64,000 bases of DNA from a virus (taxonomy: Duplodnaviria > Caudoviricetes), in the IMG/VR virus record IMGVR_UViG_3300025735_000004, positions 1-64,000 of that record; one strand, 5' to 3'. Shown one piece after another: positions 17,632 through 45,946 of this stretch (position 1 is the first letter of the stretch; each line of letters begins with the position of its first letter). Under the pieces are notes generated by a model. It had not been told where the DNA came from. It saw nothing but the letters and a program-made list of their open reading frames with translations, and ran no database searches. Both the position numbers and the translations under genes were made by a program.

Positions 17632-17957
17632 GTGGGGTAGCCGATGGTTTCCCGCGACTTGTCGCCGTCAGGCCGGATGCGGTTGGTGAGTGGGTCTTTG
17701 AACCAACCCTGCGGTTCTTCGTCAACTGCCGGGTCAAACGCCAGCATTGCGAGGATCGCGTCGGCCACGGTCTTGTAGCAGTAGCAGGCCTCAAAGCTGC
17801 AATAGCTGAGGTCGAAGAACAGGCGGCCGTTGTAGGCCATTTGGGCGACGGCCATCCAGGTGCCGTCCGGCAACTGCCGGGCGTACTGGTAACCCTGATC
17901 GAGCACCTGTTGCTCAGTCATCGGTTCCCTGAACCGGGGCGGGTTTTGCTTATTCAT
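17622..17957 (-). CDS. Hypothetical protein
   Basis: 111 aa ORF with phage-like codon usage. Confidence 0.65.
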   Translation of the reverse strand: MNKQNPPRFREPMTEQQVLDQGYQYARQLPDGTWMAVAQMAYNGRLFFDLSYCSFEACYCYKTVADAILAMLAFDPAVDEEPQGWFKDPLTNRIRPDGDKSRETIGYPTYG

Positions 17958-17979
17958 AGTTCATAATTCACAATTCATG
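17952..17979 (+). repeat. Heptad array (4 x RTTCAYR)
   Basis: ATTCATA GTTCATA ATTCACA ATTCATG, overlapping the ATG of 17622..17957. Confidence 0.85.
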
Positions 17980-17987
17980 TTTCCGAC

Positions 17988-18356
17988 TCAGTGCCCGGTC
18001 TGCCCTTCGGGGCGGGACATCAGGTGGGCAAGGCGCTGCGTAGCGTACTGGTCAATTTCGGTCAGGATCGCGTCGACCCACTGTTGCGCTGCCTCGCCAC
18101 CCTCGTTGAACTTGCCCAACATCAGTTTCATCAGCGTCTGACAGATCGCGTACTGCGCCTGTTCGGTTTCGTGGATCTGGCCAGCCGTGGCATTGGCGGG
18201 GATGATCCCCACCCGGTAGGCGGCGATGAGGTCCGCGATCGACTGCGCCCCCTCAAGCATCCCTTTCATTTGGTTCATGCGGCGCAGCGTTTCGGGGTTC
18301 TGTGCCGCGCTTGCTTGTATCCGGCGCAGCATCGCTTCTTTGTCTTGTAAGTCCAT
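17988..18356 (-). CDS. Hypothetical protein
   Basis: 122 aa helical ORF. Confidence 0.65.
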   Translation of the reverse strand: MDLQDKEAMLRRIQASAAQNPETLRRMNQMKGMLEGAQSIADLIAAYRVGIIPANATAGQIHETEQAQYAICQTLMKLMLGKFNEGGEAAQQWVDAILTEIDQYATQRLAHLMSRPEGQTGH

Positions 18357-18378
18357 GCGGGTCGTCCTTTTCAGGTGG

Positions 18379-18963
18379 TTACGCGAGCTGGATGCGATTC
18401 ATCGTCCAGCCAAACACGTACTTCTTGTTTTTCGGCCTTGCCTCGGTGCGGCCGAGGTAATACACCGCTTGCTGACTATTGATCAGGGCCAGCAGGCAGT
18501 GTTCGCCCTGTGCCTTGCGCAGCGCCAGAAAGGCATCCAGGGCGATAAAGCTCTGTGGCCCCAGGTTGCCGTCCGGCTCCAGCTGAGGGTAGTTTACCTT
18601 ACCGTCACCGTCCGGGTCGTTCAGCGCGTTGAGCGCACGTTGCAGGAACGTCGCGGCCTGGCCCGGCGGCAGGTTGACCTCGATTTCAAACAGCTCGGCG
18701 GCCAGTCGGTGGCTGCGCAGCAGCACCTGGTCGAAGTGCGGCTTGACGAAGTAGTTGCGCAGGTACAGCAACTCGGCGCTGTCGCGGGGGTAGTCCTTCA
18801 TTGCCCCCATGTAGCCGTCAGCGCGGGCCGCCGCTTCGGTCACCCCCCAACGGGTCGCACCCCCGGCGTCATTCGCGTCGATCTTGCCGCCGCCGTCCCC
18901 CTCGATGCCGATCAGCTCGGCAATGATCTTGTCGATTTCCGGTGTGCGTGTGATCAGCCCCAT
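18379..18963 (-). CDS. Endolysin, glycoside hydrolase family 108 with C-terminal peptidoglycan-binding domain
   Basis: IEGDGGG...DAGGATRWGVT catalytic region; FLQRALN, DGNLGPQS and FVFGW-like C-terminal motifs. Confidence 0.88.
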   Translation of the reverse strand: MGLITRTPEIDKIIAELIGIEGDGGGKIDANDAGGATRWGVTEAAARADGYMGAMKDYPRDSAELLYLRNYFVKPHFDQVLLRSHRLAAELFEIEVNLPPGQAATFLQRALNALNDPDGDGKVNYPQLEPDGNLGPQSFIALDAFLALRKAQGEHCLLALINSQQAVYYLGRTEARPKNKKYVFGWTMNRIQLA

Positions 18964-18990
18964 GGTGACGCTCCTTTCTTATTGTTTTGG

Positions 18991-19275
18991 TTATTGCACG
19001 ATCTCAATTTCAACCCACTCACTGCGCAGCTTCACGTCAGGCCCGAACTCGATGACGACCTGCAACCAGTAGCTGCCATACAGCGGCATGTCCCCAACTT
19101 TTGTGGTGTAACGCACCACCCCCGTTGCCGCGTTCAACACCGTCAACGCGGACGTAATGGTCACCCCCGCAGCATCCCGAATGTCCAGGGACAGCGCGGT
19201 CTTGTCGGTCAGGTCCACCCCCGCCGTGATGTCGATGTCGATGCCGTAGGTGTTGCGAAAAATCTTGATAGTCAT
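18991..19275 (-). CDS. Small beta-sandwich virion protein (BppU N-terminal-like)
   Basis: 94 aa; ATGVVRYTTKVGDMPLYGSYWLQVVIEF pattern. Confidence 0.5.
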   Translation of the reverse strand: MTIKIFRNTYGIDIDITAGVDLTDKTALSLDIRDAAGVTITSALTVLNAATGVVRYTTKVGDMPLYGSYWLQVVIEFGPDVKLRSEWVEIEIVQ

Positions 19276-19287
19276 GGGGCGCTCCAC

Positions 19288-20751
19288 TTAGGCGGTGTCG
19301 ACCGTGACGCTGAAACCGGCACTGGTCTTGGTGCTAACAACAAGGGGGAGGACTGGCACGGCCCCGACCACGGCCACTGTCGTGAGCACGGCTGCGGAAG
19401 TGGTGAATTCGGCAGGGCTCAGTGACCCGGTGGTGGTGAGCCTGGCTGCCGCGGTGGTGTGGCTTTGCTGATTGCTCTTGAGCGCGATCCGCGTGGTCAA
19501 ACCGGCCGAGGCCCCTGGCTGGTCCAGCAGGCCGGCGCGCAAACCCGCGACCGCCGCCGCGAGCCTGGCAGTCGCTGTGCTGTGGCTACTGGCGTTGACC
19601 TTGAGCAGGCTCTGCGTGCCGAGGCTGGCCGTTGCATTGGCTTGGCCAGCCAAGGCCGCGAGCAACCCGATCTGTGTGGTGAGCCTGGCGGTCGCGGTGA
19701 CCTGCACACTCACCGTGGCGCCCATGTTGTCGTGCGTGGTCAGGCTGGCCGTGGCTGCACTGACGCCGTGGGCACCCACCTGCAGCGCAATCGCGGTGGT
19801 GAGCGCGGCGCCCACCGACACTTGGCCAGCGGCGGCGGCCTTTGGACGGATCGCGGTGGTAATGGCGGCACTGAGAGTTGATGCACTGCTACCGTTCGCT
19901 TTCGGGCGGATCGCCGTGGTGAAAGCGGCACTCACCGTTGTCGAGCTACTGCCGTTCGCCTTCGGACGGATCGCCGTGGTCAACGCCGAAGTTGCAGTCA
20001 CCTGGTCGGCAGCGTTCGCCTTCGGGTGAATCCCGGTGGTCAACGCCGCCGTGCGCGAACACACGCTGCTCAGTGCCGCCGCCAAATGGGCGGCTGGGCT
20101 CTTGAACACCAGGTTGTCGTCGAAGTCAACAAACGCCGCGTGGTTGCTGACCGTCGCGTTCAGCGTGGCGTTTTCTGTGGTGCCGTCGAAAAAGAAGTCC
20201 GCCGTATAGGCCGAGGCAGCGCCTTGCAAAAGCGCCGGCCATACCTCGCAGATCAGCACATCGCCGTCGAGCGCCATGATCATCGTGCCGGGCGTGTTGT
20301 ACGACCCCCAGTCGACTTTCTCGGTGTTGGCCGCAGAGGGTGGTGCCACGCCCGTAAGCGGAATCGAGTTCCCAGGCCCCTCAAGCAACTTCCCCACCAC
20401 CGCCCCGGTGGACGGACGCCACACGTACAGGCAGGTAGTCAGGTACTGGCCCAGGTTCATTTGGGTGTTTGACTGGGTTAACGCGACGTTCAACCGGAAA
20501 ACAGCGGTCACGGATTGGTTGCCGTTTAACGGGGGGCTGGCGAAGTACCCCATGAACGGCAGTTGCAGGGCGGTGTTTGCCAGCGAGGTGCCGGACAGTG
20601 AAGCCTGCGCCGTGCCGATGGTGGTGTTCATCGTGCGCAGGGTGGCCGCGCCGGTGGCACTCCAGCTCGGCGTAGCCGAAGACTGCGGGCCGGTGGGGAA
20701 GGTGCCCGCCGCAGTGTTAGAGGCGTTGTGTAAATAGAGTTTGGTTGTCAT
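19288..20751 (-). CDS. Fibre/adhesin-like structural protein with 20-aa repeats
   Basis: 487 aa; N-terminal globular domain followed by TTAIRPKANGSS...-type 20-aa repeats. Confidence 0.6.
   Translation of the reverse strand: MTTKLYLHNASNTAAGTFPTGPQSSATPSWSATGAATLRTMNTTIGTAQASLSGTSLANTALQLPFMGYFASPPLNGNQSVTAVFRLNVALTQSNTQMNLGQYLTTCLYVWRPSTGAVVGKLLEGPGNSIPLTGVAPPSAANTEKVDWGSYNTPGTMIMALDGDVLICEVWPALLQGAASAYTADFFFDGTTENATLNATVSNHAAFVDFDDNLVFKSPAAHLAAALSSVCSRTAALTTGIHPKANAADQVTATSALTTAIRPKANGSSSTTVSAAFTTAIRPKANGSSASTLSAAITTAIRPKAAAAGQVSVGAALTTAIALQVGAHGVSAATASLTTHDNMGATVSVQVTATARLTTQIGLLAALAGQANATASLGTQSLLKVNASSHSTATARLAAAVAGLRAGLLDQPGASAGLTTRIALKSNQQSHTTAAARLTTTGSLSPAEFTTSAAVLTTVAVVGAVPVLPLVVSTKTSAGFSVTVDTA
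19840..20045 (-). repeat. 60-bp tandem repeats encoding the 20-aa unit (4 clear copies plus degenerate copies)
   Basis: Plus-strand (G/C)GATCGC(G/C)GTGGT-like cores recur at about 19844, 19904, 19964 and 20024. Confidence 0.8.
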
Positions 20752-20781
20752 CCCCTTTCACCTCGACGAAGGTGAAGTGGA

Positions 20782-21222
20782 TTAGTTGTCGATCTGGAAC
20801 GTCAGGTCGCCGATGGCAAACACTGGAGCCGGGTCACCGTTGTTGACCGTCTTGCTGACCGTCAGGGCGCTGTAGAACAGCATGTTGCCCGAGGTCGACG
20901 CATCCATCACGGCCATGCCGGTCACCGTGCCCCAGTTGGCGGTCGGAGTCGGAAAGGTGATCGTGGCGTTGTTCGACGTGGTGCCGCCGGTGCCGCTGGA
21001 GGCGGTCGTGCTGCCCGCACTTTGGGTGCCGGCCCAGTTGGCTAGGCTGTTGGTCACCGCGACCCGCGCATAACTGCCGCCAGTGGCCTCGGTGCCCCCG
21101 GAGGTGTCGGTGGGGTTGGCGGTAAACAGGGCGATGTAGAGCGTGGACGGAAAGGTGTAAGCCTGGCCGCGAAACAGCTGATCGATCAGCTTGTTTTCCA
21201 GGTAGTCGGTCATTGCGCCCAT
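20782..21222 (-). CDS. Phage tail-fibre-associated structural protein
   Basis: MTDYLENKLID...LYIALFTANP...GGSYARVAV...FPTPTANWGTVT, a widespread virion protein pattern. Confidence 0.75.
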   Translation of the reverse strand: MGAMTDYLENKLIDQLFRGQAYTFPSTLYIALFTANPTDTSGGTEATGGSYARVAVTNSLANWAGTQSAGSTTASSGTGGTTSNNATITFPTPTANWGTVTGMAVMDASTSGNMLFYSALTVSKTVNNGDPAPVFAIGDLTFQIDN

Positions 21223-21354
21223 GAAGCACCCCAAAGTAGGTCGTGTGAAGTACGCGGTCCTACGTTGGGGCCGCTTGCCATTAAAGCGTAGGTTACGACC
21301 CCGGATTTCGCTTAAATTTCATAGCTCTAGGTGTCTAAACCAACGCTTTTGGGA

Positions 21355-21645
21355 CTACGCCGCGTGTTGCGCGGTGACCACGGCGGTGAGTTGGCCAACC
21401 CGTTCCGCCAAGCGCGACAGGCGCTGCTCAAAGATGTGCTCAAACTCGCCTTTGCCTTCCTCGCGCAGGGCGGTCAGGGCGTCGGGCATGGTCATCGGCA
21501 CGATCAACGCTCGGGTGCTGTCGGGCAGGCTGGCCATGTGGGCCTCTGCTTCGTCGCGGTGGGTGTAAACCCCCGCCACCACAAGGGCTTCGCGTACTTC
21601 GTCCAGCCGGTAGAGCACCAGTGCTTCAGGTGTGATTTCGCTCAT
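21355..21645 (-). CDS. Hypothetical protein, first gene of the late region
   Basis: 96 aa ORF. Confidence 0.55.
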   Translation of the reverse strand: MSEITPEALVLYRLDEVREALVVAGVYTHRDEAEAHMASLPDSTRALIVPMTMPDALTALREEGKGEFEHIFEQRLSRLAERVGQLTAVVTAQHAA

Positions 21646-21974
21646 GGGGAGACCTATGCAAAAAATCAGCTCGGCCGTCTTCGGTTGGGTGAAACACTCG
21701 CGGCCTTGGGTTAAAGACTAGGCGAGGATCGCGAAAAAATTTTGCGTTGCTTCAAAATCGAGGCAACGGAGGCCTCAAAAGCGGGTGTTTTACCCCCTCT
21801 TCGAAAGTTTTTTTAACTATTTTTTCGGTTGTACTGGGAACCTTTTCTGACAAGGCTTTGACGCCAGAGATTGTCCGACAAAACAGGGCGTTTTGATGGC
21901 ACTTTTGTGAATGTCAAGGGGGGTAAAGACGGAGGCTTGGTTGTCTTTACCCCTCAATGCTCCGTATCCTATTG

Positions 21975-22004
21975 ACCATAAACGAAAAAGCCCCCGCTGT
22001 TAGG
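21975..22004 (-). terminator. Terminator-like hairpin
   Basis: AAAAAGCCC...GGGCTTT stem, U-rich tail on the minus strand. Confidence 0.5.
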
Positions 22005-22017
22005 CGAGGGCTTTACG

Positions 22018-22581
22018 GACTGGCGGGTGTTACAAGCACCTCCAGTCAAGGTCTCGGGGTATCTCTGCTTAGCTGGCCGGGGTACGAGACCGGGTCTAAA
22101 AAGTATACGCGAACATTGATCGCGTGTTCAACCATGCCCGCCTCATCCCCGTAACCCTTCCATTGCGCGTCTGGATCAAGATGGGGCGTTCGTTCGCCTA
22201 TTGGGCCGCAGTGCGTAAAACCACCCACAAGGGGATCTTCTCAGGGTGGTCGGTATAGCCGGGAGGTACGAACCTGGAAACAGGTCGGGAAGGCAATGGC
22301 AGGGCGGCGTATTACCCAGACACAGGCGCCGTCGACTGTCCCAAAACCTACCCCCGCCGTGCGCCGAGAAGGGCCGAGGGCGCTTGTAACGCATAACCTC
22401 GAAAGCGCGGAACGCCAGCTGGGAGTGGGAGCCGGGAAACCGGGATTTCCCCATTGCGTGGAGTTGTGTGGAAGGCCTTTTTTCAAGGGCTGGACGCAGG
22501 GGCTCGCACGCCAGTGGGAGCAAAAAGGGGGCCAGCTTTAGGCGGCCCTCACAAGCGTTTGTACCCCCCGCCTTGGGGTAC
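22018..22581 (+). ncRNA. Candidate large structured non-coding RNA
   Basis: No credible ORF; nested helices, two GAAA tetraloop hairpins, G-U pairs that favour the plus strand (details in findings). Confidence 0.4.
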
Positions 22582-22701
22582 GAATAGGGACTGGAACGAT
22601 TTAAATAATATTACGTTCAGCATCTGTTCAGACTTGTATGAGAAATGTAACGTGCTGTGCCCAGTACCAGGACAAATCCGAAAACAACAAGGAGAAGGAC
22701 A

Positions 22702-22896
22702 ATGTTGATACTGACCCGCCGTATTCACGAAACCATCATGATTGGCGACGACATCCGCGTCACAGTGCTCGGTGTCAGCGGCCTGCAGGTGCGCGTCGGC
22801 ATTGATGCGCCCAAGGGCGTCGATGTCCATCGCGAGGAAATCTACAACCGCATTCAGGCTGAAAAAGCTGATCTCGCAAAACTGGACCTAGACTGA
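22702..22896 (+). CDS. csrA: CsrA/RsmA family translational regulator
   Basis: [52 protein letters not shown]; AAGGAG RBS. Confidence 0.96.
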
Positions 22897-22926
22897 ACGG
22901 ATAGCTTCATCACAGGGAGTTCACCG

Positions 22927-23307: not shown

Positions 23308-23318
23308 GGGACTACGAC

Positions 23319-23965: not shown

Positions 23966-23980
23966 AAACAAGGATGCCCC

Positions 23981-24391: not shown

Positions 24392-24393
24392 CC

Positions 24394-25522: not shown

Positions 25523-25556
25523 CCGACAAGACAACTATAAATAGAAGGAACTGTTC

Positions 25557-25829: not shown

Positions 25830-25860
25830 TTCACCCCCCAACCATGCAAAGGAATAAGAC

Positions 25861-32749: not shown

Positions 32750-32826
32750 ACCAAACGGCGTACCAGTTAATTGTGTTTGACCGCCTAAACCGGTACAACA
32801 CTAACTGGCACCCTAAACCAGTACAA
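32750..32826. other. Putative res site / autoregulatory region of the resolvase
   Basis: Direct repeats CCTAAACCRGTACAA at 32784 and 32812; inverted CCAGTTA/TAACTGG at 32763 and 32802; directly upstream of the resolvase. Confidence 0.5.
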
Positions 32827-32835
32827 GGAGGCCCT

Positions 32836-33486
32836 ATGGCCAATTCTCTACCGTTGGTGCGGGCGTACTTGCGCGCCTCCACCGCTGAACAGGATGCACA
32901 ACGCGCCCGCGGCGCGCTGCTTGCATTCGCCGACGCTCATGGCCAGCGAATCGCTGGATTTTACCCAGAGAACGAAACCGGGACGAAACTCAACCGCCCG
33001 GAACTGTTCCGCCTGCTGAACGACAGCCAACCCGGCGACATTCTGCTGTGCGAACAAGTTGACCGGTTGAGCAGGTTGACCGAGGCCGATTGGTTGAGCC
33101 TGCGCGGAATCATCCAGACCAAGGGCCTGCACATTGTGTCGCTCGATCTGCCGACTTCGCACCAGCTCATGGCCGGACTGGGCGAGGAAACTTTCGCCGG
33201 GCGCATGCTCGGCGCGATGAACTCGATGCTGCTCGACATGCTCGCGGCCATTGCGCGCAAGGACTATGAAGACAGGGTGCGCCGCTCCCGCGAAGGGATT
33301 GAGAAAGCCCGGAAAATTCCAGGCAAGTACAAGGGGCGCATCCCTGACCTGGTGCTGCACGCCCGTGTCAAGTCGTGCCTGGAAGCCGGGATGGCGATTC
33401 GCAAAACGGCCACGGTGTGTGACTGCTCGAAAACCACGGTGCAGAAAATCAAGGCGGAACTGGACAAGGAGACCGAGGCCGCCTGA
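32836..33486 (+). CDS. Small serine recombinase (plasmid multimer resolvase type) with C-terminal HTH
   Basis: RAYLRAST catalytic Ser motif, RPELFRLL, VDRLSR, GKYKGR hinge, HTH; 216 aa. Confidence 0.93.
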   Translation: MANSLPLVRAYLRASTAEQDAQRARGALLAFADAHGQRIAGFYPENETGTKLNRPELFRLLNDSQPGDILLCEQVDRLSRLTEADWLSLRGIIQTKGLHIVSLDLPTSHQLMAGLGEETFAGRMLGAMNSMLLDMLAAIARKDYEDRVRRSREGIEKARKIPGKYKGRIPDLVLHARVKSCLEAGMAIRKTATVCDCSKTTVQKIKAELDKETEAA

Positions 33487-33721: not shown

Positions 33722-33770
33722 CTAGTTGACTAGTTTAAAACCCAAACTAGATGACTAGTTTGAAGCCCAA
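33722..33770. repeat. Two 24-bp direct repeats (25-bp period) downstream of an AT-rich tract
   Basis: CTAGTTGACTAGTTTAAAACCCAA / CTAGATGACTAGTTTGAAGCCCAA. Confidence 0.75.
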
Positions 33771-34893: not shown

Positions 34894-34940
34894 GAAGGGT
34901 TCGAATACATACGCTACATACCACGTACTACGTAGTACGA

Positions 34941-34980
34941 CATGAACCATGAATTCACAGTTCATGGTTCACAATTCACA
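34941..34980 (+). repeat. Heptad array (2 inverted + 4 direct)
   Basis: CATGAAC CATGAAT/ATTCACA GTTCATG GTTCACA ATTCACA. Confidence 0.9.
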
Positions 34981-34995
34981 ACGAGGAACCGCGCC

Positions 34996-35232
34996 ATGAC
35001 CACCACCCTCCTGAACCACTGGGACCGTATCGCCCAGCTGATCTACGCCCTGCTGCTGGACTACCTGCCCCGTCAGCTGGCCGCTGTGCTGGCCATGCTG
35101 TGGCCGATGTTCGTTGTGCTGCTGGTCATCCTCATCGTCGGCGGGCTGCTCGCCTGGCAGGACCGCCGCGACCTCAACCGCCGCGTTCACCGGCGCCTGG
35201 CTCAGCTGCGCGACGAACGCCGCGACCGCTGA
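34996..35232 (+). CDS. Small membrane protein
   Basis: 78 aa with a long hydrophobic segment. Confidence 0.65.
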   Translation: MTTTLLNHWDRIAQLIYALLLDYLPRQLAAVLAMLWPMFVVLLVILIVGGLLAWQDRRDLNRRVHRRLAQLRDERRDR

Positions 35233-35237
35233 GCCGA

Positions 35238-35270
35238 CATGAACCATGAACCCGTAATTCACAATTCATA
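35238..35270 (+). repeat. Heptad array
   Basis: CATGAAC CATGAAC ccgta ATTCACA ATTCATA. Confidence 0.85.
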
Positions 35271-35284
35271 GAAGGAAGCACCCC

Positions 35285-35752
35285 ATGAAAACCTTGCACG
35301 ACGCCCACGCCCTGACTGACTACGGCCTCAACCCGCTGACCGGCGAGGCCGACGCCTATTCCCGCCGTACCCTGTGCGACCTCAGTGATGAAGGGATCAT
35401 TCTGCTCACCGCCTACTTCGGGCTGGCCCACACCAAGGCCGCCGGGCAGGCGTTCCCGAAGAACTACAACAGCAGCGTGGGGGACAAGCCGGCGGTGGCC
35501 AGCGTGATGCTGGCCCGTGGCACCATGGACGATTTGATGGTGTTCGCCCTGCTGCACGTCGATCAGTTCGACTACGTGATGCAGACCCCGGGCGGCTACG
35601 CCGGCTTCAACGACGGCGACCAGTACGGCGAGCACTACCTGCACGCCGCCCTGCCCGAGGGCTACCGCCTGCACTACAACGCCGCCAAGCGCAGCGCCCA
35701 CCCGCACGTCGGGGACCGCAACGTCCACGCGATGAGTGGCAGGGTTCTCTGA
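35285..35752 (+). CDS. Hypothetical early protein
   Basis: 155 aa. Confidence 0.7.
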   Translation: MKTLHDAHALTDYGLNPLTGEADAYSRRTLCDLSDEGIILLTAYFGLAHTKAAGQAFPKNYNSSVGDKPAVASVMLARGTMDDLMVFALLHVDQFDYVMQTPGGYAGFNDGDQYGEHYLHAALPEGYRLHYNAAKRSAHPHVGDRNVHAMSGRVL

Positions 35753-35767: not shown

Positions 35768-35782
35768 ATATGCCGTATAATT
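35768..35782 (+). promoter_or_regulatory. TATAAT -10 box beside a CGGCA-ata-TGCCG inverted repeat
   Basis: TATAAT at 35776-35781, upstream of the RHH gene. Confidence 0.45.
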
Positions 35783-35814
35783 TCCGTACATTCCCACCAG
35801 AAAGGAGCACCACC

Positions 35815-36033
35815 ATGACCCGCATGACCCTCGACCTGTCCGATGAAATCGACCAGAAGCTCACCGCCATCGCCAAGGAACGCGGCATGACCAAGGCTGA
35901 AGCGATGCGCAAGGCCTTTGCCCTGCTGGTCATCGCCGATAACGAAGCGCGCAAGCCCGGCTTCTCGCTGGGCATCGTGCGTGAACGCGACGACCACACC
36001 CTGGAAGCGGTTGGCCGCGTGGTGGGGCTGTAA
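35815..36033 (+). CDS. CopG/RHH family DNA-binding protein
   Basis: RMTLDLSDEIDQKLTAIAKERGMTKAEAMRKAFALL. Confidence 0.85.
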   Translation: MTRMTLDLSDEIDQKLTAIAKERGMTKAEAMRKAFALLVIADNEARKPGFSLGIVRERDDHTLEAVGRVVGL

Positions 36034-36287
36034 TGGACAAGTTCGATACCGACATGAACCGCGTGTTCACCGACCCGGGCGGCGTCAACGTCAATGCCCT
36101 CGACCGCCTGCGCTTTGCCAAGCAGGTGTTGCTGGGGCTGGCCTTGATCTGTTCCGCGGTGTTCATCGCCTACGGGCTGGAACCGGACAACGCCGGGCTC
36201 GGCCATATCTTTGAACTGATCAAGATCGGCGCCTTGCCCCTGGTCACCTTGGTGATCTCGTTCTACTTCCCCAGTTCGACCAAGTAA
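36033..36287 (+). CDS. Small two-TM membrane protein
   Basis: 84 aa, coupled (TAATG) to the RHH gene. Confidence 0.7.
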   Translation: MDKFDTDMNRVFTDPGGVNVNALDRLRFAKQVLLGLALICSAVFIAYGLEPDNAGLGHIFELIKIGALPLVTLVISFYFPSSTK

Positions 36288-37546: not shown

Positions 37547-37571
37547 CCCACCCGACAAGGGAGCGACAACC

Positions 37572-37886: not shown

Positions 37887-37919
37887 CCCACCCCACCACC
37901 CCCCGAAAGGATCACTGCC

Positions 37920-38351: not shown

Positions 38352-38360
38352 GCCGCTGGC

Positions 38361-38393
38361 CATGAATTCACGGTTCACAATTCACAATTCACC
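38361..38393 (+). repeat. Heptad array
   Basis: CATGAAT/ATTCACG GTTCACA ATTCACA ATTCACC. Confidence 0.9.
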
Positions 38394-38411
38394 CAAGAAG
38401 GAAGCACTGCC

Positions 38412-38693
38412 ATGCCCACCCAAACCACCCTGTTCGCCCTGTTCAAAGTCGCCGACGTGATCGAAATCGACGGCTACGAAGTCGATAACTGCGCCTTCCT
38501 GCCCAACGACGTGGTGCGGCTCGACTACTGCCACGACGACGAGCGCACCTGCTTTGTGGACCAGCCGGTCAGCCTCGATGACGGCGCCTGCCAAGCCGTT
38601 TCCTGCGACGACCCCCAGTATGGCGGTGAAGCCGGGGATACCTGCGACCTGACCTTCAAGGTCACCCGCCTGCTGCAACCCGAGGATCTGTGA
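38412..38693 (+). CDS. Acidic hypothetical protein
   Basis: 93 aa. Confidence 0.65.
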   Translation: MPTQTTLFALFKVADVIEIDGYEVDNCAFLPNDVVRLDYCHDDERTCFVDQPVSLDDGACQAVSCDDPQYGGEAGDTCDLTFKVTRLLQPEDL

Positions 38694-38714
38694 ATTCACA
38701 ATTCACAATTCACA
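38689..38714 (+). repeat. Heptad array
   Basis: TGTGAAT/ATTCACA ATTCACA ATTCACA, overlapping the upstream stop codon. Confidence 0.9.
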
Positions 38715-38739
38715 AACCACCCGAGAAGGGACCACCGCA

Positions 38740-38913
38740 ATGAACCCGATTGACCCCAACTTCGTACAGTTCTGCCGGGGCTTGACCGACAAGCAACTGG
38801 AAAACGTCCTCGCGGACGAATGGAGCGCCCACAAACACCGTGACTACGCCTCGGCGCAGCAGGCGGCCGTGGAACGCGGCTGGACCGTGCAAGATGGCCA
38901 GCGCATCAACTAA
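38740..38913 (+). CDS. Small hypothetical protein (57 aa)
   Basis: MNPIDPNFVQFCRGLTDKQLENVLADEW...; AAGGGA RBS; below the ORF-track cutoff. Confidence 0.65.
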   Translation: MNPIDPNFVQFCRGLTDKQLENVLADEWSAHKHRDYASAQQAAVERGWTVQDGQRIN

Positions 38914-38918
38914 CCCGC

Positions 38919-38951
38919 CATGAACCATGAAGTCACAATTCATGGTTCACA
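38919..38951 (+). repeat. Heptad array
   Basis: CATGAAC CATGAAG/AGTCACA ATTCATG GTTCACA. Confidence 0.85.
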
Positions 38952-38977
38952 AACCAACACCTGAACAGGAGGCCGCC

Positions 38978-39373
38978 ATGGCCCTGATGATCCCCCTGAA
39001 TGACGCGCCGTACCTGATGACCACCGAAACCCACCCGGAGCTGTACGAGACCAGCGGCAGCCTGACCTTGGAGGCCATGCAGCAGATGGTCGGCGGCTAC
39101 ATCGAGCACGTCTTCCTGCACCCGACGCCGCGCCTGCGCCTGACCTTGGACACCAGCAACGACCTGCGCGGCGTGCTGGAAGGCGCCCCGCCCAACGCCA
39201 CGGACGTGCCCGACGACTTCCTTCCCTACGTTCACTTGGTGATCAATGAAGAGGGCAAGCTGAACGGCCTGGCCATCAACCCGATCGCCTCGGCGCTGGT
39301 CCAGCGCCACGGCCTGCGCGGGGACGTGATCTGCGGCCCCGCGCTGTTCCTCGGCCAGGACGAAATGCAATAA
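38978..39373 (+). CDS. DUF3846-like protein
   Basis: LEAMQQMVGGYIE...NEEGKLNGLAINPIAS...DVICGPAL. Confidence 0.75.
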   Translation: MALMIPLNDAPYLMTTETHPELYETSGSLTLEAMQQMVGGYIEHVFLHPTPRLRLTLDTSNDLRGVLEGAPPNATDVPDDFLPYVHLVINEEGKLNGLAINPIASALVQRHGLRGDVICGPALFLGQDEMQ

Positions 39374-39380
39374 CGCCCAC

Positions 39381-39413
39381 CGTGAATTCACAATTCACAG
39401 TTCACAGTTCACA
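39381..39413 (+). repeat. Heptad array
   Basis: CGTGAAT/ATTCACA ATTCACA GTTCACA GTTCACA. Confidence 0.9.
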
Positions 39414-39451
39414 AACCGCAACACACCCACCCCGAAAGAAGGATCACTGCC

Positions 39452-40159
39452 ATGAACCTGATTCAAGTGAAAAGCTGGAACATCGAACGCGGCCAAGACA
39501 TCGACGCCGCCATGCTGATGGGCAGTTTCACCCGCTACCTGTACCGCGATCTGGACGCGGTGGAAGTGCCGGGTAGGCCGTCGTTCCACGAGGGTATCGA
39601 AACCAGCTTCGACCGCCTGCACGGCGGCTGCCTGTTCCTGTCGTTCACCGCCTTGGCCGTGCTGGAAGAGTTGATCGACTGGGACAAGTGGGGCGAGTTC
39701 GGCGGCGGGGTGTTCGCCTACGAGCACTTGGAAGCCGACGATACCCAGCCCTATACCGAGGGCACCGACCTCGCCGCCTTCCTGCTGCGCGAGATCCCCG
39801 CAGTGGCCTGGTACGAGATCGCCGAAAACTGGGACGTGCCCAACGACACCGAGCTGACCGACCTGCTGACCCGCTGGGCGGTGGCGGTCAAATTGCCGTT
39901 GGTGGACAGTGCCGTGCCGCTGCCCGCTGAGGCCCCCGTGCTGTTAGCCGAGGCCCCCGAGCCGGAGCGCCGCTGCGACTCCTTGCCCTACGACTTCGAA
40001 GACTTCGGCCTGAACCTCACCGAGTTGCAGGACAAGTACGCCACCGAGCAGGAACACCCCGAGTACCCCAACGGCCGCTGGGGGAGGGAGGCGCCCACGA
40101 CCCCCTACTGGGACTGGGTCATGGCCTGCATCGCCAAGGATGACGACGACACCGAGTAA
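39452..40159 (+). CDS. Acidic hypothetical protein
   Basis: 235 aa. Confidence 0.7.
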   Translation: MNLIQVKSWNIERGQDIDAAMLMGSFTRYLYRDLDAVEVPGRPSFHEGIETSFDRLHGGCLFLSFTALAVLEELIDWDKWGEFGGGVFAYEHLEADDTQPYTEGTDLAAFLLREIPAVAWYEIAENWDVPNDTELTDLLTRWAVAVKLPLVDSAVPLPAEAPVLLAEAPEPERRCDSLPYDFEDFGLNLTELQDKYATEQEHPEYPNGRWGREAPTTPYWDWVMACIAKDDDDTE

Positions 40160-40210
40160 GGCCCACGGGCAGGGACGCCCACTCCACCTACCCGAGAAGG
40201 GAGCACCACC

Positions 40211-40747
40211 ATGACTACCCCCAACCCTGCGCACGCGGCGCGAATCCAGTGCCTCGACCGCGACGGCAACGTCAGCTTCTTGCACTACCAGAACGGCTGG
40301 ACCGTGACCCTGGCCCACGGCCAACGCGCCGCGCTGTCCTACGCCGGCTTCCCGCACCACCAGGCCGCGGCCTGCAAGTTCGCCCTCGACGACTGCAAGA
40401 CCCCGGCCGAGGTGCTGGCGGCAGCCCGGCGCTACGGCTGCCACACCTACACCTTGGAACTGCCCGCCAAGGAAGTCGACGATGACGGCGGCCCAGCGCC
40501 CGCTGACCACTACCGTGCGGTCGACGCGACCGGCAGCAAGATGGTGTGGGTCCCGCTCCCACAGGCGCCGAGCCTGAGCGACCGCCTCACCGCGATCGTC
40601 GACGAAGCCCGCGCCGCCGGCTACGCGGTGGCGGTGCTGTACCCCGAGGAACTGATCGGAGTCGACAACGAAGCGCTGCAGGTCCACCTGGTGCGGGCAG
40701 GGAAGGCCTTCATCGACGCCAACCGTGAACCGGAAGAAGAGGAATAA
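40211..40747 (+). CDS. Hypothetical protein
   Basis: 178 aa. Confidence 0.7.
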   Translation: MTTPNPAHAARIQCLDRDGNVSFLHYQNGWTVTLAHGQRAALSYAGFPHHQAAACKFALDDCKTPAEVLAAARRYGCHTYTLELPAKEVDDDGGPAPADHYRAVDATGSKMVWVPLPQAPSLSDRLTAIVDEARAAGYAVAVLYPEELIGVDNEALQVHLVRAGKAFIDANREPEEEE

Positions 40748-40751
40748 CAGC

Positions 40752-41141
40752 ATGAAAGCCGTCACCCAAGCCCCCAAGCCGGTCGAGATCATCGCCGGGC
40801 GTTTCGTCGTCATGTTCGAAGCGCAGGAAGAGGACACCGACCCGCGCAAACACTTCGTTGAGCAGTGCGGCTGGACGCCGAAGGACTACGCCAAGCAGCG
40901 CAACACCCAGTGGTTCGGCGTGCATATCACCCTGTGGGCCGGGGGCGAGCAGGTCGCTGAGCAGTTCCTGGGCGCCTGCGCCTACAAGAACCCCGATGAG
41001 TTCTGGCAGCGCTATCGCGGCGACTACTACGCCGACATGGTTAGCGAATGCCTGACCGCTGCCGGAGAACCCGTGCTCGCCACCATGTGGCGCGACACCG
41101 TGCGAGCTGAAACAGCCGCTAAACAAGGAGTAGCCCCATGA
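40752..41141 (+). CDS. Hypothetical protein
   Basis: 129 aa from ATG 40752. Confidence 0.7.
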   Translation: MKAVTQAPKPVEIIAGRFVVMFEAQEEDTDPRKHFVEQCGWTPKDYAKQRNTQWFGVHITLWAGGEQVAEQFLGACAYKNPDEFWQRYRGDYYADMVSECLTAAGEPVLATMWRDTVRAETAAKQGVAP

Positions 41142-42130
41142 CCATCACCATTGACCCGAAGCACCCCCTCGGCAGCGGCTCGCTGCTCTGGCTGCTGTCC
41201 GGGCGCATCCCCGGGGATGACGACGACACGCCGATGCTGTTCCTCGCCAACACCGAGGCAGGCGCCAAAGCCGCCTACGTGAAGTACATGCACGAACTGG
41301 CGGACCTCGATGCGGACGGCCTTAAGCAGCTGGAAGCCGACCATGGCAAAACCTGTTACATCAACGTCTGCGATCAGATCGGCGCTGAGCAGTCCGAGCC
41401 CCGGGAGTACGCCATCGCGATGCACGGGCTGCCCGGCCCCACCTGGCTGCAACAACCTGAAGACGACAACGACCTGGTGCTGCCGCTGACCTCTAACCCG
41501 GTGCTGGCCGCGACGTACACCGAAGCCGAGGCGCGCAGCCTGTGGGCGGACGTGTCCAAGCGGTTCCCCTCGGCGTCGTTTCGCCTTGATCGGCTGGTCA
41601 CCCCGGCGCGGATCGCGGATCTGGAGCAACGCCTGCGCGACCTCGCCGAGGGCGCCCGCAGCAAAGCCGACCTGATCGCCAGCGGCTCGCCGACCTCGGC
41701 CTACGCCAATCCGGTGCAGATCCTGCGGGCGATCGCCAAGGAAGCCGAGGACGGGTTGGGTCCCGACCCGGCCGCCGAGCTGGAGATTCAGCGCACACTG
41801 ATGCTCAGCACCGCCCACCTGCCGGACCTTTACCTTAAGTGGCTCAATGCGCAGGACCGGGTCAATGAAGGCGTCTTGTGGGAAGTCCCGCCGACTGCGA
41901 TTGCCGATGACGACGCGGAACCATCGAGCCTGATCGTCGACCCGGTCGGCGAATACGGCTGGCGGATCTGCATCACCGACTCGGTTGATGAATTCTCCGC
42001 AAGGGTGCCCGCTGACGACCCACTGCTGGCCTTGCTGCGCTTCGCCGAAACCCACCACTGCGACTGGCTGGGCATCGACCGGGACGGCCCGATCGTGCCC
42101 GGCCTGCCGACCTTTGAGGACGATGAATAA
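41138..42130 (+). CDS. Multi-domain hypothetical protein, C-terminus DUF5983-like
   Basis: LMLSTAHLP...EYGWRI...CDWLGIDRDGPIVPGLPTFE. Confidence 0.7.
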   Translation: MTITIDPKHPLGSGSLLWLLSGRIPGDDDDTPMLFLANTEAGAKAAYVKYMHELADLDADGLKQLEADHGKTCYINVCDQIGAEQSEPREYAIAMHGLPGPTWLQQPEDDNDLVLPLTSNPVLAATYTEAEARSLWADVSKRFPSASFRLDRLVTPARIADLEQRLRDLAEGARSKADLIASGSPTSAYANPVQILRAIAKEAEDGLGPDPAAELEIQRTLMLSTAHLPDLYLKWLNAQDRVNEGVLWEVPPTAIADDDAEPSSLIVDPVGEYGWRICITDSVDEFSARVPADDPLLALLRFAETHHCDWLGIDRDGPIVPGLPTFEDDE

Positions 42131-42131
42131 C

Positions 42132-42338
42132 ATGCGCATTCTCCCTGTCATCACCAGCCGCAACCCGAGCAGTCGCCCCGAAAACGACACGCTGCTGCAC
42201 TGCTACGTCTGCCCGCTGCAGGCCACCTTCAGCACGGCAGCGGCCACCGGCTGGACCTTCGACGCGGACGGGGAACCGTTCCGCACCTACTACTGCCCGG
42301 CTCACCGGCCGGACCCACGCAAAGAGAGGCAACCATGA
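42132..42338 (+). CDS. Small Zn-finger-like protein
   Basis: 68 aa, CYVC...YYCPAH. Confidence 0.6.
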   Translation: MRILPVITSRNPSSRPENDTLLHCYVCPLQATFSTAAATGWTFDADGEPFRTYYCPAHRPDPRKERQP

Positions 42339-42940
42339 AACGCCCAATGAGCAACGATGAACTGCTCCATCACATCATGCTGTACAGCAAGCACGGCTCG
42401 CTGATGCAGCTGATCGTGATGGAAGGGATACGCAACTACGCCGAAGCGATCGTGGACGCCGAGCCAGGCTTTCTCGGTACCGCCGCGCTGATGTTCAACG
42501 AAGACGACTGGCGCAACTGCTGCCGAGAGCTGCTGGACACGCTGGCCAACCGCGGGCAGCTGATGACCGAGGAAATCAGCGTGGAAGTGGAACTGGAGGA
42601 CTTCACTCCGGCGGCCCATGAAGACCCCGAAAAGGCCGGGCTGCTCAAGACCCTGCTGCACCTGGTCGGCCAAGGCTGGCAACCGGTCGAGCTGTACGAC
42701 TCGGAAGAATGGCGCAACTTCAAAGCAGGGGCGCCGCTGCCGGACGTGGTTGAGGCCTGCGCGGAAGTCGAAATGGCGACCCTGCGCCTGCGCCACTGGG
42801 ACGGCCGCACTGGCTCGCTCGGGCTGGTGTGGGGCAACAGCCCGCTTGAACTGATCGCCGACCACACCACCGACCACGGCTTTGACGAAGCGGTTGCCGC
42901 CGCCCAGCGCAGCGTGTGGCCCAACTACCCGGAGGAATGA
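42335..42940 (+). CDS. Hypothetical protein
   Basis: 201 aa. Confidence 0.7.
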   Translation: MKRPMSNDELLHHIMLYSKHGSLMQLIVMEGIRNYAEAIVDAEPGFLGTAALMFNEDDWRNCCRELLDTLANRGQLMTEEISVEVELEDFTPAAHEDPEKAGLLKTLLHLVGQGWQPVELYDSEEWRNFKAGAPLPDVVEACAEVEMATLRLRHWDGRTGSLGLVWGNSPLELIADHTTDHGFDEAVAAAQRSVWPNYPEE

Positions 42941-42941
42941 C

Positions 42942-43205
42942 ATGAGCAAGGAAGAACTGTTGGCCCAGGCCATTCAGGCCGGCGCCTCGATAAGCGAATT
43001 CATCAACAAGTTCGTGGAGCTGAACCCCCCGAGCGAGCGTGAAGTCGCGCTGATCAACAAGGCCCGAGAGCAGTACGTCAACGAGGGCGTGCTGGAGATT
43101 GACGAGCCCACCATTGCATCCATCGGCGACGACCCCGGTGGCTACGTGCTGGCGTGGGTATGGGTCTACGACAAGGTCGATGACGAAGAAGAGGAAGAGG
43201 GCTGA
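42942..43205 (+). CDS. Acidic hypothetical protein
   Basis: 87 aa; GYVLAWVWV motif. Confidence 0.7.
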   Translation: MSKEELLAQAIQAGASISEFINKFVELNPPSEREVALINKAREQYVNEGVLEIDEPTIASIGDDPGGYVLAWVWVYDKVDDEEEEEG

Positions 43206-43208
43206 GCC

Positions 43209-43433
43209 ATGTGGAAGTGCCCGGAATGCCACAGCCATCACCTGAACGTGATGATCACCACCTGCGCCAAGTTGTTGCAGTACGAGGACAACTTTGAAAC
43301 CGAGGTGGCCGGCGACCACGAGTGGGACGACACGTCGAACATGACCTGCGAAGACTGCGGGCACTGCGATGCCGCGTTGCACTTTGACACCGACCAAGAT
43401 GAACCAACACCTGAGAAGGAACCGCAACCATGA
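43209..43433 (+). CDS. Zn-ribbon protein
   Basis: CPEC and CEDC pairs. Confidence 0.7.
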   Translation: MWKCPECHSHHLNVMITTCAKLLQYEDNFETEVAGDHEWDDTSNMTCEDCGHCDAALHFDTDQDEPTPEKEPQP

Positions 43434-43870
43434 GCACCTGGCACCAAGACAAAGCCCCCGTGAACCCGCAACACCCGTTCAACTGGACGGTGTACACCAA
43501 CCCGCCGAACCGCTCGGCCTCGGCGATGGCCTACCCCACCCAGGCCGAGGCCGAGGCGTTCATGGAACGGCTCAAGGCCGCCGTGAAGCCCGACGATCTG
43601 GAACGGCAGCTCGCGCTCAAGCACACCCGCATCCTGCCGCCGGTGTACACCAACGACCAGCGCCACGAACTGTTCTACGACGTGCGCAAACCCAGCGGCC
43701 AGCTCGGTTACGTGAAGAAGGAACACATCGAGCGCTTCCTGCTGGAGCTGTGCGGCGGGGGCATGGACGCCAAGCAGACGGCCAGCGCCATGCAGTACGG
43801 CGGCGAGTTGAAGTTGAACACCCGTGTCGTCGTCAAGGGGCACAAGATCGGCCCGGTCGGGACGGTGTGA
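43430..43870 (+). CDS. Hypothetical protein
   Basis: 146 aa. Confidence 0.65.
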   Translation: MSTWHQDKAPVNPQHPFNWTVYTNPPNRSASAMAYPTQAEAEAFMERLKAAVKPDDLERQLALKHTRILPPVYTNDQRHELFYDVRKPSGQLGYVKKEHIERFLLELCGGGMDAKQTASAMQYGGELKLNTRVVVKGHKIGPVGTV

Positions 43871-43871
43871 C

Positions 43872-44069
43872 ATGCACAAACCCATCCTGATCGCCACGGA
43901 CGGGCGCAAGAACGGCCTGGAAGCCTGGGCGCTGTACGACGACACCATCCCGGGCTATGAGCTGTTCGCCAGCCAGGCCTGCAACGATTACTTCGGGGAT
44001 GCCGACACCCTGGAAGACTGCAAGAAAGTCGCGCAAGCCTGGTTTGACCAGCGCGCCAGCGAGCAATAA
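43872..44069 (+). CDS. Small hypothetical protein
   Basis: 65 aa. Confidence 0.6.
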   Translation: MHKPILIATDGRKNGLEAWALYDDTIPGYELFASQACNDYFGDADTLEDCKKVAQAWFDQRASEQ

Positions 44070-44158
44070 CCCCCGCACCACCCCGTAACCCCAAACCCCA
44101 ATAAGGCCAGCCAACTACCCCGGCAGGCCTACTCTTGCCTGTAGAAAGGAGAATCACC

Positions 44159-45001
44159 ATGCAACGCGCCCTTAGCCGTAACTTCGCTCACAACGCCAAC
44201 TCGCTGCGCAGCGAAATCGCCCTCACCGACGACCAGATTTTCCGGGTCGCCCCCTCGATCTTTGCGCAGGAACCACACGGCTCCCGCAGCGAACGCTATG
44301 CCTACATCCCGACCATCGACGTGCTCAACGGCCTGCGCAAGGAAGGCTTCGAACCCTTCGCCGTGGTGCAGTCCAAGTGCCGGCTGGAAGGTAAGAGTGA
44401 GTTCACCAAGCACATGATCCGCATGCGCCACGCCAACAACATCCTCGCCCCGCAGGCCAACGAGATCATCCTGCTCAACAGCCACGACGGCACGTCGTCC
44501 TATCAGATGCTGGCCGGGTGTTTCCGCTTCGTCTGCCAGAACGGCATGATTGCCGGCGACATCCTGGAAGACATCCGCATTGGCCACCGCGGTGACGTGA
44601 TGGGCAACGTGATCGAGGGTGCCTACACCGTGCTGCAGGGCTTCGACCTGGTGGATGAATCCCGCGAGGTGATGCAACAGACCCGCCTCAGTCAGGAGGA
44701 ACAGGCGGTGTTCGCCCGCTCGGCGCTGATGCTGCGCTACGACACCGAAGACGCTGGCAAGGCGCCAATCCAGGCCGACCAGCTGCTGCGGCCACACCGC
44801 CGGGAAGACACCGGCACCGACCTGTGGACCACCTTCAACGTCGTGCAAGAGAACGCCTTGAAAGGCGGGCTGCGGGGCCGCACGGCCAACAACCACCGCA
44901 CCACCACCCGTGCCGTCACTGGCATCACCCAGGACATGAAACTCAACCAGGCCCTGTGGGCACTGGCCGAGGGCATGCGCCAGCTGAAAGCCGCCGCCTG
45001 A
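44159..45001 (+). CDS. DUF932 family protein (plasmid leading-region type)
   Basis: PHGSRSERYAYIPTIDVL, FTKHMIRMR, NSHDGTSSYQMLAGCFRFVCQNG, LWTTFNVVQEN. Confidence 0.92.
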   Translation: MQRALSRNFAHNANSLRSEIALTDDQIFRVAPSIFAQEPHGSRSERYAYIPTIDVLNGLRKEGFEPFAVVQSKCRLEGKSEFTKHMIRMRHANNILAPQANEIILLNSHDGTSSYQMLAGCFRFVCQNGMIAGDILEDIRIGHRGDVMGNVIEGAYTVLQGFDLVDESREVMQQTRLSQEEQAVFARSALMLRYDTEDAGKAPIQADQLLRPHRREDTGTDLWTTFNVVQENALKGGLRGRTANNHRTTTRAVTGITQDMKLNQALWALAEGMRQLKAAA

Positions 45002-45084
45002 CGGCGGGCACGTTGGAACCGGACGCTGCTGGTAGACTGTCGGTCTACCCGCAGCCCCCTCCACCCTTTAAGTGACTCACTGCC

Positions 45085-45711
45085 ATGAGCAAAAAACCGA
45101 TCGACCCCGCCCGACTGATCCCCGTCGAGCAACTGCCCGCCCTGCGCCAGCAGGCCGAGGAACAAGCCCACGTCAACGTCGACCGCCTGAACGCCAAGAC
45201 CCGCAGGGCGGCGACCTTGGGCGATGACGCGATGGAGATTGCCCGACTGCCCCTCAGTCAGCGCATTCGCTACAACAAACTGGTCAAACTGGTGGATGCG
45301 GCCAGCGCCGACATCATGCCGTTCACCGCCTGCCGCAAGGGGTGCAGCCACTGCTGCAACATCGCGGCGTTGATTTCCGATGTCGAAGCGCAGCGCATTG
45401 GCGAAGCGATCGGACGCAAACCGGTGAAGACCGGCGCGTTTCCGGCCGATGTCCCCGCGCTGCAGAAGAAATACTTTGGCGTGCCTTGCACCTTCTTGAA
45501 GGGCGGGCGCTGCTCGATCTACGAGGTTCGCCCGCTGGCCTGCCGGCTGCACTTCAGCATGGCCGACGACTCGTTCTTCTGTTCCACCGCGATCGCCCCG
45601 CAGAACAGCCTGGTGCCGGCGCTCAACCTGCAGGGCGTCGACCGGGCGCTGTTTATGATGACGCTCGGGTCGATGCACGCGGACATCCGCGACTTCTTTC
45701 CGAAGAGGTGA
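45085..45711 (+). CDS. YkgJ/FliB-like cysteine-cluster protein
   Basis: CRKGCSHCC, CTFL..GRCSIYEVRPLACR. Confidence 0.88.
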   Translation: MSKKPIDPARLIPVEQLPALRQQAEEQAHVNVDRLNAKTRRAATLGDDAMEIARLPLSQRIRYNKLVKLVDAASADIMPFTACRKGCSHCCNIAALISDVEAQRIGEAIGRKPVKTGAFPADVPALQKKYFGVPCTFLKGGRCSIYEVRPLACRLHFSMADDSFFCSTAIAPQNSLVPALNLQGVDRALFMMTLGSMHADIRDFFPKR

Positions 45712-45899
45712 GGGGAGGGGCAAAGGCCGTGTCTGTCCGCTCTGGCTAATCGCGCATCTTTCAGCGCGGTAGACGCAACCCCGTCCGTTCTGCGTGAGTG
45801 CCGGCTTATGGGGAGAATTCGTCCGGCAGCACCTTTGCCCCTCGCTACAACTCTAGGCCAACCTGTCCGGTCGAGCAAAGCACGCCGACAGGCGCTTTC

Positions 45900-45946
45900 C
45901 ATGAACTCATAATTCACTATTCACATATATGAATTGCGTATTCATG
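45900..45946 (+). repeat. Heptad array upstream of parA (putative operator/parS)
   Basis: CATGAAC/ACTCATA ATTCACT ATTCACA, then TATGAAT and ATTCATG; about 70 bp before the parA ATG. Confidence 0.8.

Follow-up and report, generated by a model that had tools for sequence, protein, structure and literature searches.

What is the function of eight short arrays of a 7-bp unit dispersed in the genome of a tailed phage, and which protein reads them? The question is raised by the phage contig IMGVR_UViG_3300025735_000004 (G000 in comparisons below), 81,709 bp in length; its first 64 kb, a stretch of 64,000 nucleotides, are termed the window, and coordinates refer to it unless another contig is named. 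One array lies upstream of parA, which is followed by a gene for a small ribbon-helix-helix (RHH) protein, P0001 (46649–46894). It is probable that all eight arrays are binding sites for P0001, and that this protein belongs to the pB171 par2 family of type Ib ParBs, which bind centromeres.

The heptad arrays

An initial annotation of the window had described phased heptads at eight places, and all eight arrays are found there. The double heptad RTTCAYRRTTCAYR is present in 17 copies, against 0.01 expected from shuffled sequences, and none of 100 shuffles reaches 17. Tandem Repeats Finder detects period-7 arrays at the same eight places. No further array was found anywhere in the 81,709-bp circular contig, i.e. 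none outside 17.9–46 kb.

The register in which the repeats were first read (RTTCAYR) makes the inverted head of an array overlap the first direct unit by 2 bp. With a shift of one base the unit becomes TTCAYRN, and inverted and direct units abut on a single gap-free 7-bp lattice. For pairs within 49 bp, 56 of 58 neighbours are in phase (27 of 28 direct–direct and 29 of 30 inverted–direct pairs). The arrays are 28–49 bp in length, have 4, 6, 5, 5, 4, 5, 5 and 7 contiguous lattice positions (arrays 1–8) and are approximately 70% AT, within GC-rich DNA. As the initial annotation had observed, most open with inverted copies: seven of the eight begin with one or two inverted units, which form a (C/T)(A/G)TGAATTCA palindrome.

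Six of the arrays lie between a stop codon and the next ribosome-binding site (RBS) in a co-directional + strand gene cluster, 8–30 nt upstream of the RBS and in the sense orientation. All arrays are given on the + strand. Array 2 (34940–34981) follows the radC stop codon, precedes the RBS of a 78-aa gene at 34996 and consists of six contiguous units, two inverted and then four direct. Array 3 (35237–35271), before the gene at 35285–35752, has five positions: two inverted, one degenerate and two direct. One inverted and four direct units form array 4 (38360–38394), before the gene at 38412–38693, and array 7 (39380–39414), before a 235-aa gene at 39452–40159. Array 5 (38688–38715) has one inverted and three direct units with a perfect TGTGAATTCACA head, and precedes a 57-aa gene at 38740–38913; array 6 (38918–38952), with two inverted and three direct units, precedes a DUF3846 gene at 38978–39373. 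Apart from this DUF3846 protein, no function is recognisable for the genes behind the arrays (RadC is encoded upstream of array 2), and there is no basis for the earlier description of them as anti-host genes. Behind each array, the leader has the C/A-rich sequence that generally surrounds RBSs in these phages, and it is present also at junctions without arrays.

The remaining two arrays are placed differently. Array 1 (17953–17980) has four contiguous direct TTCAYRN units, no inverted head and a degenerate fifth unit extending to 17987. Its units are on the + strand between two − strand genes, upstream of packaging and morphogenesis genes. Array 8 (45899–45947), upstream of parA, has seven contiguous units of mixed orientation and is a candidate for a parC1-like operator and centromere. 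The seven other arrays lie up to 28 kb from the par locus. The lattice is strict whatever the orientation of the units, and the orientation and position of arrays are conserved in relatives; this argues, as was proposed from the strand of array 1, for a signal at the DNA level.

A 14-bp perfect palindrome, GTACTACGTAGTAC (34923–34938), is located immediately upstream of array 2 after radC, and has one change in the related phage G001. Possibly another regulator has its operator here, where the gene cluster starts.

The ParA/RHH module

The parA gene (46015–46656, + strand) encodes a 213-aa Walker-type ATPase of type Ib size, lacking a helix-turn-helix (HTH) at its N-terminus and with matches to the Pfam families AAA_31, CbiA, ParA and MipZ. 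Its full-length identity to the par2-type ParA of the Escherichia coli plasmid pRS218 is 43% (E = 4e-60). The gene for the 81-aa, ParB-like P0001 (46649–46894, + strand) overlaps the parA stop by 8 nt. P0001 has only a sub-threshold match to RHH_1 in Pfam, and no model in Pfam, NCBIfam or PHROGs provides a family name. Its family profile, however, aligns with the 91-aa ParB of pRS218 with 98% probability (hhalign, E = 1.6e-13). This family is widespread; the profile retrieves 148 representative clusters, and more than 1,100 plasmids have homologues by tblastn.

The AlphaFold model of P0001 (predicted local distance difference test score 76) has a tail helix, a ribbon with the sequence SITISLP and two helices. 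Fold searches with this model place MetJ and other RHH proteins at the top, but every E-value is weak. In a profile alignment with MetJ, T37 of P0001 pairs with Thr25, a base-contacting residue of the MetJ ribbon.

A sigma-70-like promoter (CCGACA-17-CATAAT, 45885–45913, + strand), which is a consensus match only, has its −10 hexamer inside array 8. The parA leader also contains a small hairpin, GGTAC-TGT-GTACC, followed by a T-run (45970–45982, + strand). A hairpin with a T-run is found between the array and the parA start in every lineage (45960–46005 in the window, 9930–9960 in L047 and approximately 1700–1730 in L051). The position is kept and the stems differ (GGTAC-TGT-GTACC, AACGGTGCA-T-TGCACCGTT and GGGTAC-TCA-GTACCC). 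The hairpin may be a leader attenuator or a second operator.

Conservation in related phages

Searches with ParA and the RHH protein revealed relatives of G000 on contigs of 72–84 kb. Conservation of the arrays in relatives, for which the initial annotation had proposed to look, is found at orthologous junctions, at parA and beside the late operon (G001, G002, L046, L052 and L053). In G001 (complete, 84 kb), the same heptad is present after radC and at the equivalents of 35238 and 38361, so that arrays 2, 3 and 4 have orthologous arrays; it is also found at parA and beside the late operon. L053 has a similar array 4. Array 1 has orthologues of unchanged orientation in G001, with 5 units, and in G002, with 4. 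In L046, the orthologue of the 57-aa gene is preceded by an array, as is that gene by array 5 in G000, and the orthologous 235-aa gene is preceded by an array in L046 (reduced), L052 and L053. Array 8 is kept in L024, L025, L046, L052 and L053. The pattern of G002, L046, L052 and L053 resembles that of G001, with some gain and loss.

In G001, arrays also precede cassettes without orthology to the G000 cassettes, and a further one is located downstream of the par genes, approximately 0.8 kb after the RHH stop codon. The arrays that border non-orthologous cassettes may also serve as recombination patches.

A set of 23 hits of ATTCACA triple heptads in viral contigs was rejected as unrelated, as these have no DNA or protein similarity to G000. 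The eight of the 23 loci that were inspected are mostly of lower GC content, with long heptad runs resembling microsatellites or short tandemly repeated repetitive (STRR) sequences, and without an inverted head or ParA. Long ATTCAYA runs are found in L003, L005/L009, L006, L014 and L017 (GC 38–50%), which have no proteins in common with G000. In several such contigs these runs adjoin other heptads (TTTTCAA, TCTTGAA, GTAAACR and AATCYGY), an STRR-type-like arrangement.

Homologous modules on plasmids and islands

Every ParA/RHH module sampled, whether from a plasmid, a genomic island or a phage, has heptad arrays on the lattice beside parA. In L048, L049, L050 and L056, runs of 5, 8, 11 and 7 contiguous units, respectively, follow the RHH stop codon directly; the chance expectation for such runs is approximately 0.05 per locus. 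All four also carry an inverted head with direct units shortly ahead of parA. In the mobilisable plasmid L048, the parA RBS is preceded by TTATGAA in five units and TTCATAA in one. In the genomic islands L049 and L050, parA is preceded by one inverted unit and three to four direct ones (those of L050 were read by eye, the automated tiling being off phase there), and the RHH gene is followed by one inverted and 7 or 10 direct units, mostly ATCACAG. In the Pseudomonas plasmid L056, a 28-bp palindrome of four units is located under the promoter.

The par locus of pRS218, a plasmid of which we take pUTI89 to be a close relative, has parM/stbB divergent from parA and the gene for the 91-aa protein. 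Its intergenic regions contain ATCACAT, TTCACAT, TTCATAA and TTATGAA units on the same 7-bp lattice. Runs of three direct units are confined to the par locus in the 114-kb pRS218; G000 has 11 such runs at 8 sites and G001 has 10 at approximately 7 sites, with none in controls. A Pseudomonas plasmid with a homologous module has a few extra unit pairs, near one other operon only. Since arrays are found only at par in pRS218 and there are just these few extra pairs in the Pseudomonas plasmid, dispersal of multi-unit arrays is, among the replicons compared, a feature of this phage group.

In L058 (Pseudomonas aeruginosa pPA1045-2), extra inverted pairs (TTATGAA-TTCATAT, TTGTGAA-TTCATAA and ATATGAC-TTCATAG) flank a ZapB/KlcB-like gene far from par, at 20242–20310 and 21841–21880. 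This hints that ParBs of the P0001 type may regulate other plasmid operons too.

Covariation of ribbon and heptad

Three RHH-type candidates for the array-binding protein were weighed: P0001, P0002 (encoded at 35770) and an Arc-like protein (52038). The initial annotation had favoured the first and named the other two as controls, P0002 under the name RHH 35815. P0002 is excluded, because G001 and G002 keep the arrays but lack this protein. The Arc-like protein is considered with the alternative explanations below.

Two diverged lineages of these phages allow a sharper comparison. The ribbon is SITIS in G000, SMSIS in L047 and SLSIS in L051, with the ParA of L047 and L051 63–65% identical. In the arrays upstream of parA in both phages, TAAGCAA/TTAGCAA replaces TTCACAA. 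The dispersed junction arrays of L047, the only switched lineage with sampled junction sequence, have switched heptad too, and the lattice, the inverted head (GCTAATTAGC in place of TGAATTCA) and the downstream leader are otherwise unchanged. As the parA and junction arrays of L047 have switched together, dispersed and parA arrays would share one binder.

A third lineage of the Ser type, L054, has the ribbon ISIS and units of the TTGGCAA/TTAGCAA type. Across lineages, the ribbons SITIS, VTIS and PITIN go with a TCAY core, and S[ML]SIS (L047 and L051) or ISIS (L054) with a T[AG]GC core at parA. On the ParA tree, L047 and L051 are nested within the Thr-type phages and L054 is outside that clade. 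The Ser-type lineages do not form one clade, which argues for at least two independent switches.

Homology of P0001 to a characterised type Ib ParB family, the presence of arrays by every homologous module, and the covariation of heptad and ribbon all point to the ParA-linked protein. Thus, P0001 is very likely the binder, as the initial annotation had supposed.

One intergenic array in the class B phage L047 (12787–12947) mixes, on a single lattice, class B units (CTGCTAA, TGAGCAA, TTGCTAA and CTAGCAA) with class A units (TTGTGAA and TTCACAG). This mixed array may be a relic of the specificity switch, or a site read by both types of ParB.

A proposed role in partition, and known systems

In the explanation proposed here, one RHH dimer would bind each 7-bp TTCAYRN unit. 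With units abutting in either orientation, dimers would coat an array of 28–49 bp as a continuous filament, as omega does on its heptads, and P0001 probably coats each of the eight arrays in this way. Array 8, over the parA promoter, would be the equivalent of parC1, providing autoregulation of the operon and a centromere; by analogy, it most likely acts as both operator and centromere. The other seven arrays would be extra copies of the site from the partition locus, six of them before the RBSs of accessory cassettes and one beside the late operon. Most likely, these add ParB-loaded sites and enlarge or multiply the partition complex, an arrangement that makes sense because RHH ParBs cannot spread. 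Secondarily, the arrays may impede transcription through the cassette cluster; a road-block, which the initial annotation had envisaged, or another effect of the dispersed arrays on transcription is possible but unsupported. The coupling of segregation to lysogeny control suggested in that annotation is likewise hypothetical.

ParG, omega and the ParB of pB171 are grouped together as RHH ParBs (PMC2441792). The repeat arrays of pB171 are dual, with the upstream one regulating the operon (PMC7602700), and both pUTI89 and pB171 are described as carrying double par loci (PMC9800825). The par2-type locus, as represented by pRS218 and pUTI89-type plasmids, shares with G000 a homologous ParA and RHH ParB, TCAY-core units on a 7-bp lattice beside the operon (on both sides in pRS218), and an upstream array that overlaps the par promoter region. 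It differs in that arrays are found only at par in the E. coli plasmid, whereas G000 has seven more and none directly after the RHH gene, and the G000 replicon is a tailed-phage genome. The partition module itself appears to be of a known kind (type Ib, pB171 par2 family); the new features would be the dispersal of arrays and the specificity switches.

The comparison with omega of pSM19035, which the initial annotation had drawn, holds in part. Omega binds unspaced heptads in either orientation (PMC2441792), with 4 to 10 units at several separate sites per replicon, and full activation of ParA needs at least four contiguous units (PMC9499535). Both systems have an RHH protein with a flexible N-terminal tail and a small ParA, and in omega one protein is centromere binder and repressor (PMC2441792, PMC9499535). 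It should be pointed out that RHH-type ParBs cannot spread along DNA (PMC9499535). The gap-free 7-bp geometry is thus common to both, but the closest family is the ParB of pB171 par2. Omega was not retrieved for P0001 by phmmer, by a family profile search of PDB sequences or by Foldseek, and a sequence link of P0001 to omega or ParG was rejected after phmmer, profile and fold searches found none. The ATCAC core of the omega site WATCACW is shared by the distant modules L049 and L050 (ATCACAG) and by pRS218; an exact WATCACW match is absent from the G000 unit TTCAYRN. The omega ribbon has Thr/Arg whereas that of P0001 has Ser/Thr/Ser, and omega sites are all at promoters whereas seven of the G000 sites are inside operons without a recognisable promoter.

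Two partition proteins of the HTH class also act on scattered sites. KorB of RK2 is a partition protein and at the same time a global regulator, through about a dozen operators scattered over the replicon. It differs from P0001 in being an HTH ParB that recognises 13-bp palindromes at or near promoters, and in belonging to a conjugative plasmid, not a phage. In phage N15, the centromere sites are near phage regulatory regions and influence late gene expression. N15 is likewise a phage, kept as a low-copy plasmid, and its centromere sites IR1–IR4 are separate and unclustered (PMC7205306). However, SopB of N15 is an HTH ParB of type Ia and can spread from single inverted repeats, whereas the candidate in G000 is a type Ib RHH protein on multi-unit arrays.

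A probable phage-plasmid

The contig has a 127-bp terminal overlap, which indicates a circular assembly, and a GC content of 62%. It encodes a terminase, portal, S49 protease and capsid typical of tailed phages; the closest isolates are the Pseudomonas phages Lana and PMBT3, with a terminase identity of only approximately 32%. Megablast gave no match to phages, and with plasmids only DUF932 fragments. Plasmid-type functions are represented by ParA and the RHH protein, a serine resolvase and a primase, and no PF00589 tyrosine integrase was found in G000. The lack of an integrase, the ParA/RHH pair, the resolvase, the primase and the circular assembly all fit a plasmid-prophage lifestyle, and G000 probably lives as a phage-plasmid.

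The serine resolvase, with an HTH_7 domain, is encoded at 32773–33486, just upstream of the accessory cluster. The homologous par loci of L048 and pRS218 also have resolvase genes in their vicinity, and this suggests that multimer resolution and partition are linked in one module. Three further features were seen in the window. A 25-bp tandem repeat of 2 copies (33722–33770) is in the 550-bp gap before the accessory cluster, and a 60-bp tandem repeat of 2.4 copies (19840–19980) is in the late region; both are unrelated to the heptads. At 35770–36287, the P0002 gene and an 84-aa gene behind it overlap by 1 nt and resemble a toxin–antitoxin pair.

Alternative explanations

A more far-reaching form of the partition hypothesis is that P0001 has become a genome-wide gate, with the arrays setting expression of the cassettes and of the late-operon side during plasmid maintenance. 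This is conceivable, but we regard it as rather doubtful.

That a different phage regulator binds the arrays, with the parA promoter just one of its targets, appears improbable. Such a regulator could be, for example, a repressor that escaped recognition or the Arc/Mnt-like protein encoded at 52038. Classical repressors of phages include RHH proteins of the Arc/Mnt type, and all relatives in the phage group have kept the Arc-like protein. Its residues K52, V54 and R56, which should point to the DNA according to an alignment with Arc, are nevertheless invariant in L047 and L051 despite the switch in heptad core. Moreover, no array is found upstream of the Arc-like gene, and the same lattice is present by ParA–RHH modules on plasmids and islands, with no Arc-family gene seen in the sampled loci.

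The arrays might instead be recombination junctions, i.e. crossover sites of the serine resolvase or homology patches for the exchange of cassettes, with protein binding incidental. The cassettes that arrays flank in G001 and that are not orthologous to those of G000, the variable number of arrays per junction, and the resolvase genes just upstream of the cluster and near the par loci of L048 and pRS218 are in keeping with this. But the heptad core covaries with the RHH ribbon, and the islands L049 and L050 have long arrays without a resolvase nearby. We know of no res or hix site that resembles a lattice of up to 11 tandem units. As the sole role of the arrays, recombination is thus quite unlikely; it is compatible with binding by P0001 as a side effect, and is no alternative to it.

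The probability is lower still that the arrays act in mRNA, as G-poor unstructured leaders or as sites for an RNA-binding protein that tunes translation of the cassettes. The six arrays before an RBS, in sense orientation, would indeed be transcribed. A strict 7-bp phase between inverted and direct units is, however, meaningless for single-stranded RNA; the 17953 array is antisense to its operon and conserved so; arrays on plasmids and islands follow the RHH stop codon without a downstream gene start; and junctions without arrays have the same C/A-rich leader. Least probable of all is that the arrays are nucleation patches for MvaT/H-NS-type silencers of the host or for two MvaT-like proteins of the phage: these silencers recognise a general AT-rich shape, the arrays are AT-rich patches in GC-rich DNA and this phage group encodes MvaT_DBD proteins, but neither the exact 7-bp lattice with its defined inverted head nor the discrete CA-to-AG switch of the core at constant AT content is explained, and plasmid and island modules carry arrays by parA whatever their MvaT gene content.

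All of these rivals are weakened because the lattice is independent of orientation, the arrays are linked to ParA–RHH modules in unrelated replicons, and ribbon and heptad covary. A number of points nonetheless weigh against the reading of the arrays as sites of a P0001-based partition system. In contrast to all plasmid and island modules, G000 lacks an array directly behind the RHH gene. Arrays at individual junctions turn over among relatives, and no single site is indispensable. A scan for sigma-70-like promoters found only the one at parA and none at the intergenic arrays. The intergenic arrays were accordingly rejected as sigma-70 promoters themselves; a classical operator role is also not evident at the dispersed arrays, because these are in a co-directional cluster without such a promoter. 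The DNA-facing residues of the P0001 ribbon are only Ser/Thr/Ser, with no Arg or Lys, and the change from Thr to Ser alone may not explain a change of specificity at two bases. Other proteins could have covaried with the heptad unnoticed. The equivalence of the pRS218 locus to pB171 par2 is taken from the gene layout and from the statement on double par loci in PMC9800825.

Implications

How RHH ParBs, which do not spread, build a partition complex that is large enough is an open question, and eight arrays over 28 kb are a natural test case. The covariation would also provide a recognition rule for a widespread and unnamed ParB family, in which TCAY cores accompany Thr (or Gly) in the ribbon and T[AG]GC cores accompany Ser.

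Should P0001 have become a genome-wide gate, one autoregulated protein would run both segregation and maintenance of the carrier state. Portable units of array plus leader would let newly acquired cassettes join the regulon, and lineage-specific switches of ribbon and heptad would give rise to incompatibility or immunity groups. If the dispersed arrays have no effect on transcription, G000 would have an ordinary partition system with an unusual centromere layout. If they do affect it, N15 SopB and RK2 KorB would have a type Ib counterpart in a Pseudomonas-like phage-plasmid.

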